From IMG/VR virus record IMGVR_UViG_2740892421_000003: a stretch of 5,743 nt of DNA; one strand, written 5' to 3'. A program made the translations under genes and the position numbers. The notes beneath the pieces are model-generated. The model saw only the letters and a list, made by a program, of their open reading frames with translations. It had not been told where the DNA came from and did not search any database. This DNA is from a virus (Duplodnaviria; Heunggongvirae; Uroviricota; Caudoviricetes). Below, piece by piece: positions 1 through 5,743 of this stretch. Numbering within the stretch: position 1 is the stretch's first letter; every line of letters begins with the position of its first letter.

Positions 1-2
1 CG

Positions 3-3000
3 TCATCGGCCTCATCGGCGTCTGCTTCAAAAGATGAGGCGACCAGACAAGCGTCAGCAGCGAAGGGCAGCGCCACGACGGCATCCACGAAGGCAACAGA
101 GGCTGCTGGCAGTGCGACGGCGGCATCTCAGAGCAAAACTACTGCTGAATCCGCTGCGACCCGTGCGGAAGCTGCTGCTGATCGTGCTGAAGAGATTGCC
201 GGTGCAGTTGCGATGGAAGACGCAAGCCTTACAACTAAAGGTGTTGTGAAACTTAGCAGTGCTGTTGATAGCACCAGTGAATCGCTGGCCGCAACGCCAA
301 AAGCAGTTAAAGCAGCCAATGACAATGCGAATAGCAGGGTGCCATCTAACCGAAAAGTTAACGGAAAAGCACTGACTGCGGATATAACATTAACGCCGAA
401 AGATATTGGTACTTTAAATTCAGTAACGATGTCTTTCTCTGGCGGGGCTGGGTGGTTCAAACTGGCTACGGTTACCATGCCACAAGCGAGTTCCATCGTT
501 TACATCGCATTGATTGGTGGCGCTGGTTACAACGTCGGTTCCCNNNNNNNNNNCACATTAACGCCGAAAGATATTGGTACTTTAAATTCAGTAACGATGT
601 CTTTCTCTGGCGGGGCAGGGTGGTTCAAACTGGCTACGGTTACCATGCCACAAGCGAGTTCCATCGTTTACATCGCATTGATTGGTGGCGCTGGTTACAA
701 CGTCGGTTCCCCACATCAGGCAGGCATTTCAGAACTGGTTCTACGAGCAGGCAATGGAAACCCCAAAGGAATTACCGGGGCTTTGTGGAAGCGTACAGCC
801 GTCGGATTAACGAATTTCGCCTGGATCAACACATCCGGCGATACATATGATATTTACGTTGAGATTGGCAATTATGCGACGAGTGTAAATATCCATTGGG
901 ATTGTACTGCAAATGCGTCAGTTTCTGTTTATACCTCGCCAACATATTCAGCGAGTAAGCCTTCCAGCGTTACCTATGGTGTTGTTTATACGATGTATAG
1001 CTCACATCAGAAACCTACACCATCAGATATTGGAGCACTGCCAACAACCGGAGGAACAGTTTCAGGTCCGTTGTCTGTTACAGGTGGATTAACTGGTTCA
1101 TTGAATGGTAATGCAAGTACAGCCACGAAATTGCAGACGGCAAGATCTATCGGTGGAGTTGTTTTCGACGGTTCTGCAAATATTAACCTTCCAGGTGTAA
1201 ACACTACGGGTAATCAGAACACCACTGGTAATGCTGCAACTGCTACAAAACTTCAGACTGCAAGAAAAATATCCGGTGTTCCATTTGATGGTTCTACTGA
1301 TATCACTTTAACCGCCGCGCATGTGGCTGCTTTTGCCAGAAGGGCAACGGATACATATGCCGATGCGGATGGTGGCGTTCCCTGGAATGCCGAATCAGGC
1401 GCTTACAATGTCACCCGCTCTGGCGACAGCTATATTCTGGTTAACTTCTATACCGGAGTCGGAAGTTGCCGGACCCTGCAGATGAAGGCGCATTACAGAA
1501 ATGGTGGTCTGTTCTACCGTTCTTCAAGAGACGGTTATGGTTTTGAGGATGACTGGGCAGAAGTTTATACCTCGAAAAATCTTCCACCAGAAAGCTACCC
1601 AGTCGGCGCACCAATCCCGTGGCCATCAGATACCGTTCCGTCTGGCTATGCCCTGATGCAGGGGCAGACTTTTGACAAATCTGCATACCCGAAACTTGCA
1701 GTGGCTTATCCGTCAGGCGTTATTCCTGATATGCGTGGCTGGACGATTAAGGGCAAGCCCGCCAGTGGTCGTGCCGTATTGTCTCAGGAACAGGACGGCA
1801 TTAAATCGCACACCCACAGCGCCAGCGCATCCAGTACGGATTTGGGGACGAAAACCACATCATCGTTTGATTACGGCACTAAATCCACGAATAACACTGG
1901 TGCACATACCCATAGTGTTAGCGGTACGGCTGCTTCAGCCGGTGCACATACCCATTCGATGACATTTGTTTCAGGTGGTTCCAGTGGTGCTCCGGGAANN
2001 NNNNNNNNAGGTGCTTTGTGGAAGCGTACAGCTGTCGGATTAGCGAATTTCGCCTGGATCAACACATCCGGCGATACATATGATATTTACGTTGAAATTG
2101 GCAATTATGCGACGAGTGTAAATATCCATTGGGATTGTACTGCAAATGCGTCAGTTTCTATTTATACATCGCCAACATATTCAGCGAGTAAGCCTTCCAG
2201 CGTTACCTATGGTGTTGTTTATACGATGTATAGCACACATCAGAAACCGACGCCGTTAGATATTGGAGCACTGCCAACAACCGGAGGAACAGTTTCAGGT
2301 CCGTTGTCTGTTACTGGTGGTATCACCGGAACATTAAATGGTAATGCAAGTACAGCAACGAAATTGCAGACGGCAAGATCTATCGGTGGAGTTGGTTTCG
2401 ACGGTTCTGCAAATATCAACCTTCCAGGTGTAAATACTACGGGTAATCAGAACACCACTGGTAATGCCGCAACTGCTACAAAACTACAGACGGCAAGAAC
2501 TATCGGCGGCGTGAGCTTTGATGGTACTGCAAATATTAATTTGCCAGGTGTTAATACGACTGGTAATCAGAATACAACAGGTAATGCGGCTACTGCTACG
2601 AAGTTGCAGACTGCGCGTACTATTAATGGGGTGTCGTTTGACGGTTCTAAAAACATTGAGCTAACTCCAAGGTCTATAGGCACGATCAACTCAGCAACAA
2701 TATCTTTTAGTGGTGGTGCCGGATGGTTCAAGCTGGCAACTGTAACCATGCCACAGGCCAGTTCCGTGGTTTACATAAGCCTGATTGGTGGTGCAGGGTA
2801 TAACGTTGGCTCCCCGCATCAAGCAGGCATCTCTGAGCTGGTTCTGCGTGCCGGAAATGGAAATCCAAAGGGTATTACTGGTGCATTATGGCGACGGACA
2901 TCGGTTGGATTTACTAATTTTGCATGGGTGAATACATCCGGTGATACCTATGATGTTTATGTTGAAATAGGTAATTACGCCACAGGTGTTAATATTCAGT

Positions 3001-5330
3001 GGGATTATACCAGTAACGCCAGCGTAACGATTCATACATCACCAACTTATACAGCGAATAAACCAACTGGTCTTACTGATGGAACGGTATATGTCATTTA
3101 CAGTTCGCACATTAAACCGACCGCCACGGATGTCGGCGCATTACCAATAACCGGAGGAAATCTCAACGGCGGTTTAACGGCTACTGGTGAGATCATTTCA
3201 AAATCGGCGAATGGTCTGCGCATTGCCTACGGAAGCTACGGATTCTTTATCCGAAACGATGGTTCAAACACATATTTCATGTTGACCAATTCGGGTAACA
3301 GCCTGGGAACCTATAATAGTTTAAGGCCGCTTATCATTAACAATGCCAATGGTGCTGTTACGATCGCTAATGGACTCAATGTTACTGGTGGCGTAAATGG
3401 TAGCTTGAATGGCAATGCTTCAACGGCTACGAAGTTGCAAACAGCGAGAAACATCAATGGTGTTAAGTTTGATGGTTCAGGCGATATCAATATTAATACA
3501 TTGGTATCTCGTGGCCGAGTTACGGCGTTAAGCGGCTCTACTCAAGGCACTGCTGGCATTCAAATGTATGAGGCGTACAACAATAGCTACCCGACCATGT
3601 ATGGCAACGTATTGCACATGAAAGGTGCGAGTGCTTCTGGTGAGGGCGAGATGCTTGTTGGCTGGAGCGGAACGGATGGTGCTCATGCACCGGTTTATGT
3701 TCGTTCACGCCGTGATACTTCGACAGCGAATTGGTCTGGTTGGGCGCAGGTCTATACCACTGCTCATAAACCCACAGCGAAAGATGTTGGGGCTGCACAG
3801 ACGTTTAGCGCGTCATACAGTACTGGGGCTGGCAACTGGACTACCGCTGAATTTATCGCATGGCTGAAGGAGCGTGGTGCTTTCGCCGTACCGTATTGGA
3901 TGATGAAAGGCTCTTGGTCATATGCCGACAATAAAATTATCACTGATACAGGTGTCGGCAATATTTGTCTTGCTGGTGCGGTTATCGAGGTTTTAGGTCA
4001 CGAAGGCGCAATGACCATCCGAGTTACTACGCCTACAACGACAACCGGAGGTGGTATTGCCAGTGCTCAGTTCACCTATATTAATCACGGTAGCGCGTAT
4101 GCCCCTGCCTGGCGCAGAGATTACAACACTGCTCTCAAACCCACTGCGGCTGATGTCGGTGCGTTACCGATTTCTGGCGGAACAATGACTGGTGTGCTGA
4201 CGCTGCAAAATGTGAGTCAGCCCCTCAAGACGCAAGGTGGAGGCATTCTGGCAAATGATGGAAATTTATACATTAATAAGTCGGGATTTGCAGGCTGGAT
4301 TGATGCGCTATTTATGAAAAACAGCGGCGGTACGATGTCCGGACAGCTTAAGATCCGCTCTACGGATGGGTTACGCATTTACGATGCGGCATACGGGATG
4401 ATTTTTCGCCGTTCCGAAAATAATTTTTACCTTATCCCGACAGCAAAAGACCAGGGAGAAAATGGTGATATAGGTTCGCTTCGTCCATTTTATGTAGATC
4501 TCACTAATGGCAGAGTAACAATGGGCAATGGTGCTGTTGTTAACGGTGGTCTTGGGCTGGGTGTGGTCAATGGTCTTGGCGGTAATTCCATTGTTCTGGG
4601 TGACAATGACACCGGCTTTAAACAGAACGGAGATGGCATTCTGGATGTTTACGCCAATAGCGCCCATGTTTTTAGGTTCGTTAATAGCACGCTGCAAAGC
4701 CTTAAGCCGTTGAGTGTAACGGGTGACATCACGTCAAGTGCGTGGGTTTACGCCAACCGTTTTTCCATCAACAGCGGCTCTGGCGCGTGGATAGATATGC
4801 GTAACCAGAACGTCATCTTCGGGAGGAACGCTGTAAGTACAAGCTCTGCACAAGCGTTGTTGAGACAAGACCACGCGGATCGCAAATTCTTCTTGGGTGG
4901 CTTGGGAAACAGTCAGTTTGGTTTTTACATGATCAACAACTCACGTACCGCAAACGGCACTGACGCTGCCGCTTATCTCCAGAACGACGGCACTTGGGTT
5001 TGCGCAGGCAACGGTAGTTTTAATGACGTTTACATCCGTTCCGACCGCCGTAGTAAGCGCAATATTCGCAAAATTGAGCGGGCGCTCGACAAGCTGGAGC
5101 AGATCGAAGGTGTTCTCTACGAGATTCAGGTCTGTGGCCGTTATGAGCAGTCTGGCGGCCTCATCGCTCAGGACGTCCAGAATGTTCAGCCTGAACTGGT
5201 AACGGTTGACCATAACGATCAGTCAGGAGAGCCTCGTCTGCGTCTTAACTACAACGGCGTTATCGGCATGTTGGTCGAGGCTGTCAAAGAGCTGCGCGAG
5301 GAAGTGCGCGAACTGAAGGCAAAAATGTAA
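3..5330 (+). CDS. Long (side) tail fibre protein, mosaic, with C-terminal intramolecular chaperone domain; 5'-partial (continues upstream of window); spans two N-run gaps
   Basis: Frame +3 has no stop codon from nt 3 to TAA at 5328-5330 (1775 sense codons in window). Translation upstream of the track's ATG at 213 reads [70 protein letters not shown], a typical fibre shaft, so 213 is an internal Met. Contains the Stf-type motif [25 protein letters not shown], 40-aa tail-fibre repeats, a tail-collar-like block, HTHS motifs, and an S-D-x-x-x-K C-terminal domain. Family call from memory, not a search. Confidence 0.9.
237..311 (+). other. Conserved side-tail-fibre motif ([25 protein letters not shown]), as recalled from lambda Stf and relatives
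   Basis: Direct translation of frame +3. The motif and preceding Ala/Ser/Thr-rich stretch resemble the central region of lambda Stf as I recall it (..[25 protein letters not shown]..). Confidence 0.7.
387..711 (+). repeat. Tandem direct repeat: 157-nt unit (387-543) repeated at 555-711, period 168 nt, copies separated by the 10-N run
   Basis: Both copies encode [52 protein letters not shown]. By manual alignment there is one mismatch (T449 vs A617, GCT vs GCA, synonymous). Confidence 0.85.
544..553. other. Run of 10 N (assembly gap or masked bases) inside the tail fibre ORF
   Basis: Literal nnnnnnnnnn in the sequence; flanked on both sides by the same 157-nt repeat unit. Confidence 0.99.
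778..1265 (+). repeat. Long direct repeat, copy A (~488 nt; partner at 2011-2498, in-frame offset 1233 nt)
   Basis: Manual alignment gives about 28 mismatches in about 488 positions (about 94% identity; needs computational confirmation). Encodes [49 protein letters not shown]...[17 protein letters not shown]...[12 protein letters not shown]. Confidence 0.85.
1101..1320 (+). repeat. Two tandem copies of the ~40-aa phage tail-fibre repeat (120-nt period)
   Basis: [43 protein letters not shown] followed by [27 protein letters not shown]. The GGT-AAT-GCx starts at 1107 and 1227 are exactly 120 nt apart. Confidence 0.8.
1599..1998 (+). other. Tail-collar-like domain followed by three His-x-His (HTHS) motifs; a lambda-Stf-type distal receptor-binding region found here in the middle of the ORF
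   Basis: [133 protein letters not shown]. Matches my recollection of the C-terminal region of lambda Stf and of tail-collar domains (..LPDMRGW..). The block ends exactly at the second N run. Confidence 0.75.
1999..2008. other. Run of 10 N (assembly gap or masked bases) inside the tail fibre ORF
   Basis: Literal N run. Left flank is the end of the HxH block; right flank starts in the middle of the repeated module (GALWKRT...). Confidence 0.99.
2011..2498 (+). repeat. Long direct repeat, copy B (partner of 778-1265)
   Basis: Same manual alignment as copy A. Protein differs at only about 7-8 residues (for example LTNF/LANF, SVSVY/SVSIY, TPSDIG/TPLDIG, GGVVFDG/GGVGFDG). Confidence 0.85.
2334..2680 (+). 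repeat. Three tandem copies of the ~40-aa tail-fibre repeat (120-nt period; units start near 2340, 2460, 2580)
   Basis: ..[40 protein letters not shown] / [40 protein letters not shown] / [27 protein letters not shown]. Nucleotide copies are diverged, mostly at synonymous positions. Confidence 0.85.
2664..3158 (+). repeat. Third, diverged copy of the ~230-aa fibre module (TPRSIG...[18 protein letters not shown]...[10 protein letters not shown]...[16 protein letters not shown]...[17 protein letters not shown])
   Basis: Collinear at protein level with 387-1058. Nucleotide sequence is clearly more diverged than the A/B pair (roughly three quarters identical by eye, not computed). Confidence 0.75.
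3213..4580 (+). other. Distal fibre region with two related units of about 60-70 aa (3213-3400 and 4368-4580; pattern GLRI..Y..G..FR....N.YF..T.....G...SLRP......NG.VT..NG) and small domains each ending in a KPT..D.GA junction
   Basis: [54 protein letters not shown] versus [55 protein letters not shown]. Protein-level similarity only; no nucleotide repeat. Confidence 0.5.
3405..3500 (+). repeat. Sixth, isolated copy of the 40-aa tail-fibre repeat
   Basis: [31 protein letters not shown] in frame +3. Confidence 0.75.
5040..5327 (+). other. C-terminal intramolecular chaperone / autoproteolytic domain (endosialidase-chaperone, peptidase S74-like); predicted cleavage after Ser encoded at 5040-5042, Lys at 5055-5057
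   Basis: Translation ..[102 protein letters not shown]. The S-D-x-x-x-K spacing and the GLIAQDV / LNYNGVIG / terminal helix signature match the self-cleaving C-terminal domains of phage K1F endosialidase and T5 pb1 as I recall them. Confidence 0.8.
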
Positions 5331-5336
5331 TCAAGG

Positions 5337-5366
5337 TGAATGGTGAGGGGCCACCCTCACCATTCA
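5337..5366 (+). terminator. Perfect hairpin (13-bp stem, 4-nt GCCA loop) 6 nt after the fibre stop codon; possible terminator or attenuator lacking a canonical U-tract
   Basis: TGAATGGTGAGGG-GCCA-CCCTCACCATTCA; all 13 positions pair (7 G:C). Downstream sequence is GGATATTCACATC, not a T run. Confidence 0.45.
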
Positions 5367-5382
5367 GGATATTCACATCAAA

Positions 5383-5388
5383 AAGGAG
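5383..5388 (+). promoter_or_regulatory. Shine-Dalgarno sequence (AAGGAG) for the downstream gene
   Basis: AAGGAG sits 7 nt upstream of GTG at 5396 (5 nt upstream of the out-of-frame ATG at 5394). Confidence 0.6.
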
Positions 5389-5395
5389 ATTAGAT

Positions 5396-5743
5396 GTGCC
5401 AATTGTCGGTGTTCCCGGTTGGATTGGGTCTTCGGCTGTCAGTGTGACAGGCCAGAGATGGATGAGTGCGGCTCGAACGGCGGTGCAACTGCCAGCGGCT
5501 GGTTCAATGTCTCAAATGGCCGGGCGATCTAAAGAAGTTCAGTACAGCATCGGTGCGAATCATAACTACAACAAAGACACACTGATCAACTATTTAAAAT
5601 CCCAGGGGGCGACGCCAGTCGTTGTTACCATTACAGGGGATCTGGTGTCGTCCAGTAGCGGCGTGCCATGTTTAGATTTCCCGAGTTCACTTACCAACTC
5701 TTATATCAGCCTTGTAATCAACGCAGGTGTGACTGTCTATGGA
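5396..5743 (+). CDS. Hypothetical phage protein, GTG start, 3'-partial (runs off window); function unknown
   Basis: Frame +2 is open from GTG 5396 to the window end (116 codons, no stop): (M)PIVGVPGWIGSSAVSVTGQRWMSAARTAVQLPAAGSMSQMAGRSKEVQYSIGANHNYNKDTLINYLKSQGATPVVVTITGDLVSSSSGVPCLDFPSSLTNSYISLVINAGVTVYG. The overlapping ATG at 5394 is in another frame and stops after 17 codons. Missing from the ORF track because it has no ATG start and no stop in window. Confidence 0.6.
   Translation, partial: MPIVGVPGWIGSSAVSVTGQRWMSAARTAVQLPAAGSMSQMAGRSKEVQYSIGANHNYNKDTLINYLKSQGATPVVVTITGDLVSSSSGVPCLDFPSSLTNSYISLVINAGVTVYG

Follow-up and report, generated by a model that had tools for sequence, protein, structure and literature searches.

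An apparent 1705-residue tail fibre with an internal collar/HxH block is very probably a scaffold chimera of two paralogous fibre genes

The 1705-residue protein apparently encoded by the 5,743-nt stretch of viral DNA analysed here (IMG/VR record IMGVR_UViG_2740892421_000003; hereafter the window) does not exist; the scaffold strings together pieces of two separate tail-fibre genes. With a probability of about 0.95, the window is a short-read scaffold in which two paralogous fibre genes from one E. coli-type isolate were interleaved. We infer both the behaviour of the assembler and the origin of the two genes in one isolate, as opposed to a mixed sample. The first gene (gene A) is the side tail fibre gene (stf) of a chromosomal lambdoid prophage, whose product has a T4 gp37-type collar-needle-head tip and needs the downstream chaperone gene tfa. 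The second (gene B) is the fibre gene of an SSU5-like phage-plasmid, with a self-cleaving S74 chaperone end and a gp38-like adhesin gene after it. About 0.9 kb is common to the two genes at 92-100 % identity. A preliminary description of the window had asked whether the collar/HxH block is a true internal domain or the product of a scaffold chimera; the second reading is the one that stands, as the flanks of the junction are not adjacent in gap-free relatives, and the first is rejected.

Two N runs of 10 N each divide the window into three contigs (1-543, 554-1998 and 2009-5743; Table 1). A single open reading frame (213-5330) spans both runs in frame, each being translated as XXXX. Where linked contigs resist merging, the assembler SPAdes may place an 'artificial gap' of constant length, 10 N, between them. 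The overlap of the flanks at N run 1 and the comparison with reference loci suggest that both runs in the window are arbitrary spacers, a use of 10-N runs as gap or concatenation markers that is also met in published papers.

Table 1 Features of the window (L003, stf locus of the STEC409 chromosome; L009, gap-free phage-plasmid fibre contig)
Feature	Position	Strand	Evidence
Contig 1, chromosomal lambdoid-prophage stf allele	1..543	+	100 % to L003 2870-3412; Pfam PF03406
Contig 1 content: Ala/Ser-rich shaft, Phage_fiber_2 repeat (PF03406), first half of shared module	1..543	+	
N run 1, putative artificial 10-N spacer between overlapping contigs	544..553	.	157-nt overlap on L003
Contig 2 start, plasmid-allele bases C554 and A617	554..617	+	554-775 100 % to L009
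Stretch exactly common to both paralogous fibre genes; zone of the plasmid-to-chromosomal switch in contig 2	618..775 (158 nt)	+	Zero differences vs L003 and L009
Chromosomal stf-specific part: module second half, 40-aa repeats, gp37_C-like region, Collar, 3/7 HxH	776..1998	+	100 % to L003 through 4699
N run 2, putative artificial spacer between non-adjacent sequences of two different genes or replicons	1999..2008	.	Junction in 0/5,426 genomes
Contig 3 coding part, SSU5-like phage-plasmid fibre, mid-module to stop	2009..5330	+	100 % to L009
Best Gp34_trimer stretch	~3105-3338	+	Pfam
Peptidase_S74 intramolecular chaperone (PF13884, E 2.7e-11)	~5040-5204	+	Pfam
Perfect hairpin of 13 bp; the spacer that contains it separates the fibre gene from the gp38-like gene by 65 nt	5337..5366	+	RNA fold
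gp38-like adhesin gene, 5' part only	5396..5743	+	Pfam Gp38_N, GP38

The reading frame is one argument for a genuine internal domain. On that view the Ns would stand for some 10 real bases, and a single fibre of 1705 residues would carry half of a collar/HxH tip and, after it, the repeated module for a second time. The preliminary description was right that the frame is kept across both runs, and right that this continuity is uninformative if the spacers are arbitrary. Under the arbitrary-spacer model the frame would be kept at both runs by chance in about 1/9 of cases, and therefore its preservation carries little weight.

The collar/HxH block itself is real sequence, and it stops immediately before the second N run, as first described. 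At 1605-1748 Pfam detected a Collar domain (PF07484; E 1.2e-11; score 44.8 bits, cut-off 24), corresponding to residues 351-398 in the translation of 555-1997. An HxH-type Phage_fiber repeat (PF03335) was also matched after the Collar, together with gp37_C. The window holds three HxH motifs (1809-1817, 1905-1913 and 1947-1955), and the last residues of the block, ...SGGSSGAPG, end at 1998 and adjoin the N run.

When positions 1300-1998 were compared with 5,426 complete E. coli genomes using megablast, 100 % matches were obtained, with 6,181 places on chromosomes versus 143 on plasmids. In the closed STEC409 and ETEC1746 chromosomes the matching gene is stf, arranged as in lambdoid phages (J - lom - stf - tfa). 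Positions 555-1998 are 99.93 % identical to 3256-4699 of the STEC409 locus (L003). Beyond the equivalent of position 1998, the stf gene of this locus goes on for another 79 codons, which encode four further HxH motifs and the terminal ...NIAFNYIVRLA; tfa comes next. The preliminary description had expected from lambda Stf that about 100 residues follow the HxH motifs; a C-terminus is indeed missing from the window, and in the chromosomal homologue of 100 % identity it is exactly 79 residues long. The C-terminal end ...KNIAFNYIVRLA with adjoining tfa is present in the loci L003-L005, L084 and L085. No such end directly followed by tfa was found in the window, which has a gp38-like gene next instead. 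Some P1-like phage-plasmids of the IncY group also bear the collar/HxH block; there too it is C-terminal, about 83 codons follow the equivalent of position 1998, and tfa comes directly afterwards. The window matches a lambdoid Stf (J-lom-stf-tfa, gp37-type tip, Tfa) at 100 % (1-543) and 99.93 % (555-1998) identity and has its Collar domain and HxH motifs, but its copy ends with the contig and lacks the last part of the protein, with four of the seven HxH motifs, as well as tfa.

The structure of the tip shows what this truncation removes. The last 216 residues of the STEC409 Stf (860-1075) were aligned to residues 26-242 of the T4 gp37 tip (2XGF_A) over the whole domain with an E-value of 2.5e-90. 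In the T4 tip, three chains extend to the head and then turn back, which makes a six-stranded antiparallel needle (PMC9659904); HxH motifs coordinate seven iron ions in it (PMC11705849). The STEC409 Stf has seven HxH motifs, at residues 934, 966, 980, 1015, 1029, 1038 and 1047. The break in the window comes after residue 996, in the stretch aligned to the gp37 head, where the hairpin turns back. The full needle, with outgoing and returning strands and seven HxH motifs, is absent from the window. As the Stf sequence breaks off at this turn, after three of the seven motifs, a half needle inside a longer chain probably could not form the gp37-type fold. This counts against a genuine internal domain. 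We regard as extremely improbable a recombinant fibre in which a truncated gp37-type collar and half-needle, a short linker, a second copy of the shared module and an SSU5-type S74/gp38 end would make a cryptic internal half-tip. The collar/HxH module is not an internal domain but the C-terminal tip, cut short, of an ordinary lambdoid Stf.

After the second N run the sequence resumes in the middle of a module (GALWKRT...), as the preliminary description had recognized; a second copy of the same module lies at 777-1076 (96 % identity), and a more distant copy at 2880-3179. Positions 2009-5743 were aligned in one collinear block, at 100 % identity over 3,735 nt, to IMGVR_UViG_2630968639_000001 (L009), a contig which may come from a close relative or even the same strain and is not necessarily fully independent. 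This contig of 4,486 nt contains no Ns and was found by an exact-pattern scan of IMG/VR. Upstream of the equivalent of position 2009 it has the first half of the module and an Ala/Ser-rich shaft, and no collar/HxH block; the 222 nt immediately upstream are identical (100 %) to positions 554-775 of the window. Its partial reading frame is uninterrupted over 1,324 codons and has no Collar or HxH sequence. A gap-free record in which the same right flank is preceded by other sequence is hard to reconcile with an internal domain.

The right flank resembles the fibres of non-mobilizable plasmids of 105-116 kb from E. coli and Enterobacter, with 90-98 % identity to the E. coli fibres and up to 98.6 % among plasmids of this size. 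The fibre of Salmonella phage SSU5 is 90.6 % identical over 3547-5314. The gene order on the plasmids is TipJ - fibre - 'receptor-recognizing protein' (L001, L002, L006, L007 and L086), with TipJ lying upstream of what the window covers. Gp34_trimer repeats and a C-terminal Peptidase_S74 domain were found by Pfam in the contig-3 fibre, and the partial reading frame at 5396-5743 matched Gp38_N (PF21721; E 1.5e-15) and GP38 (PF05268; E 1.8e-26); this gene is annotated as a receptor-recognizing protein in L001, L002, L006 and L086. Such a gene normally follows the plasmid-type fibre, and it is not tfa. The S74 and gp38 distal end is self-contained and of a different type from the Tfa-dependent gp37-type tip. 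The window shares this end, the S74 chaperone and the gp38-type gene, with SSU5-like phage-plasmid fibres (T2/S16-style distal end). It differs from them in its 5' part, which is split, the true upstream piece (554-775) lying 1.2 kb of gene A away. As a side observation, the hairpin at 5337-5366 folds at -25.2 kcal/mol (z = -5.1); 0 of 200 shuffles folded equally well, and no T run follows it.

The junction between positions 1998 and 2009 was searched for directly, with a gap-closed query of 300 nt (1849-1998 joined to 2009-2158). Among the 5,426 complete E. coli genomes, none matched at least 80 % of this query in one place, while one or other half was found in 3,308 of them. No record contained at least 80 % of the window in one place, and the junction with its 10 Ns gave no match in genome contigs. 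In IMG/VR, all 62 contigs with the 46-mer ending at 1998 continue with GTGGA.CA.CTGATTA, the Stf C-terminus. Both contigs with the 46-mer starting at 2009 (L008 and L009) have ...AAAGGAATTAC just before it, and the preceding sequence in both, ...GGAAACCCCAAAGGAATTAC, equals positions 696-775 of the window. In genome contigs, the only match to the exact 46-mer ending at 1998 was in an unrelated 79.5-kb E. coli contig.

The flanks of N run 2 are thus non-adjacent in the gap-free relatives, that is, in the 5,426 genomes, the 62 viral contigs and L009. By the preliminary description, a gap that closed with no more than about 10 real bases and uninterrupted coding would have marked a genuine internal domain. 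The gap-free relatives show the opposite, the left flank running on into the 79 Stf residues and tfa and the right flank being preceded by the first half of its module. Tail-fibre genes are mosaic, with modules shuffled between phages, and one contig (L008) does join a plasmid-type start to chromosomal-type sequence up to the equivalent of position 1546, which would speak for an internal domain. However, the absence of the junction from the complete genomes and the uniform continuation of the left flank into the Stf C-terminus weigh heavily against it, as do the 157-nt duplicates around N run 1 of the same record, which overlap on the reference, and the start of contig 3 at the first allele-specific base. 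An internal domain can hardly be maintained on this evidence.

The contigs might also be in the correct order with a large gap between them. Two tandem fibre genes would then lie on one replicon, and N run 2 would conceal the end of Stf, the tfa gene and the region of the second fibre gene that encodes its N-terminus. Scaffolders usually join contigs by read pairs, and two fibre genes do occur in some phages. Yet in closed genomes the left type lies on chromosomes, in the order J-lom-stf-tfa with non-fibre genes after it, and the right type lies on plasmids of 105-116 kb between TipJ and a gp38-like gene; the two were never joined in any record within the joining distance of the search. Moreover, contig 2 starts with plasmid-allele sequence and contig 1 is chromosomal, so the branches are interleaved rather than ordered, and read pairs within the shared 0.9 kb would suffice for a false link. 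We consider such a hidden gap very unlikely. The two types do occur together in separate replicons of one host: the closed genome of CP53 has stf on the chromosome (L005) and an SSU5-type fibre on plasmid pCP53-113k (L086), which are about 90 % identical to each other over some 1.9 kb and have an exact repeat of 185 nt.

N run 1 separates contigs that overlap. On the STEC409 locus the left flank of this run reaches as far as 3412, but its right flank already begins at 3256. Because contigs 1 and 2 therefore overlap by 157 nt, N run 1 is no true gap. Within the window, positions 387-543 equal 555-711 except for one base. A real in-frame tandem duplication of 168 nt at this place was considered and rejected: the copies differ exactly at the sites that distinguish chromosomal from plasmid alleles, and both references are single-copy.

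Contig 1 was assigned to the chromosomal allele by nine diagnostic bases (nine differences versus L009). At position 554, the four plasmid loci all have C and the three chromosomal loci all have A. Position 2009 is the A of ATTAC-AGGTGC (plasmid) as opposed to ATTAC-CGGGGC (chromosome), the first base to differ between the alleles. Both contigs that follow an N run thus begin exactly on an allele-discriminating base, 554 and 2009. Such starts are those of edges in a branching assembly graph; a biological junction has no reason to fall there.

It is also conceivable that contig 2 is a real recombinant allele, in which gene conversion linked C554 and A617 to the 3' part of the chromosomal stf; the artefact would then be limited to the join at N run 2. 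When the reconstructed path A was compared with path B, exact common stretches of 52-158 nt were observed, the longest match being 158 nt, and these would permit homologous exchange. One contig (L077) does combine A617 with the chromosomal-type CGGGGC branch. The 44-mer with A617 was found in 13 independent metagenome and viral contigs. However, all nine contigs with C554 and A617 that reach position 776 take the plasmid branch of the contig-3 type, and no collar/HxH sequence was found in the eight contigs of this kind long enough for comparison. Contig 1 already has the chromosomal alleles at the same positions, which also argues against gene conversion. We judge a recombinant contig 2 unlikely, though less so than the other alternatives. 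Even if it were true, it leaves the verdict on the junction at N run 2 as it is.

Under the preferred reading of a chimeric scaffold, the repeats common to the two genes, being probably longer than the usual short-read k-mers, would have caused the assembly graph to branch and invited false read-pair links. The scaffolder would then have set the branches in series with fixed 10-N spacers: chromosomal 1-543, N, the plasmid start, shared stretch and chromosomal part of 554-1998, N, and plasmid 2009-5743. The true gene A would consist of positions 1-543 and 712-1998 plus about 239 nt outside the window (79 residues with four HxH motifs, and the stop), followed by tfa. The true gene B would consist of an upstream part outside the window, positions 554-775 and positions 2009-5330. 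Position 775 would continue directly into 2009 (ATTAC-AGGTGC), and position 1998 into GTGGATCACCTGATT. The window shares with short-read scaffold artefacts, in which paralogous branches are placed in series with fixed N spacers, its 10-N runs, the duplicated flanks of its first gap, the contig starts at branch points and the non-adjacent flanks of its second gap.

Genes A and B both belong to well-known families, and their apparent fusion is not a real feature. The 1705-residue 'giant tail fibre' with an internal collar/HxH block should not be annotated or counted as a new domain architecture. This reading frame is also unfit for host-range or structure prediction, and the main value of the case lies in quality control. 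That unrelated temperate phages trade fibre modules is well established, and here a lambdoid prophage and an SSU5-like phage-plasmid have exact stretches of 150-185 nt in common. The case shows how such paralogous fibre genes defeat short-read assembly, with an in-frame chimeric reading frame as the outcome.

The SSU5-like phage-plasmid fibre in the window ends at its C-terminus in a Peptidase_S74 intramolecular chaperone, and a separate Gp38-type adhesin gene lies downstream (see table). This combination is like the T2/S16-style long-tail-fibre tip, here borne by a siphovirus-like phage-plasmid. A perfect 13-bp hairpin, GAATGGTGAGGG-GCCA-CCCTCACCATTC, separates the two genes (-25.2 kcal/mol, z = -5.1 in RNA folding). 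It is not a canonical intrinsic terminator, because no T run was found 3' of the hairpin.

Tandem repeats of 120 nt (40 aa), with a motif beginning GNA(S/A), are present in both fibre genes. Their number is not equal in the two paralogues: the part from the chromosomal stf has two and the plasmid fibre three, plus one further copy standing alone. Two plasmids carrying SSU5-like fibre genes (L001 and L002) have a pseudogene annotation ('missing C-terminus') on the 5' portion of this gene, with a separate fibre CDS after it. Both assemblies are listed as complete. Either the gene, which is rich in repeats, is truly disrupted, or the split stems from a frameshift or an error of assembly.

Features of the fibre genes and related loci (w, position in the window)
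Feature	Location	Remark
Exact stretch common to stf and plasmid fibre	w618-775	158 nt
40-aa repeats	w1107-1296, w2340-2649, w3411-3478	GNA(S/A)... motif
Peptidase_S74	w5040-5204	C-terminus of plasmid fibre
Hairpin	w5337-5366	between fibre stop codon and gp38-like gene
Gp38-type adhesin gene	w5396-5743
Annotated pseudogene in L001	3235-4926	5' part of fibre gene
Annotated pseudogene in L002	3127-4353	5' part of fibre gene
Contig L008 (IMGVR_UViG_2671180727_000014)	10303-11295	plasmid-type start, then chromosomal type

Contig L008 is a further natural mosaic built from the same stf and plasmid-fibre modules. Its start carries the plasmid-allele bases C554 and A617 and the AGGTGC branch, after which it follows the chromosomal type at 93 % as far as w1546, in the gp37_C-like region, and stops short of the collar/HxH block.

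When the chromosomal lambdoid stf and the SSU5-like plasmid fibre were compared, an exact common stretch was observed in the window and another, of 185 nt, between the corresponding loci (L005 and L086) in the closed genome of strain CP53. In both pairs, the exact stretch sits inside 0.9-1.9 kb of 90-96 % identity. This suggests that two temperate elements, unrelated to each other, have recently exchanged modules within one host.
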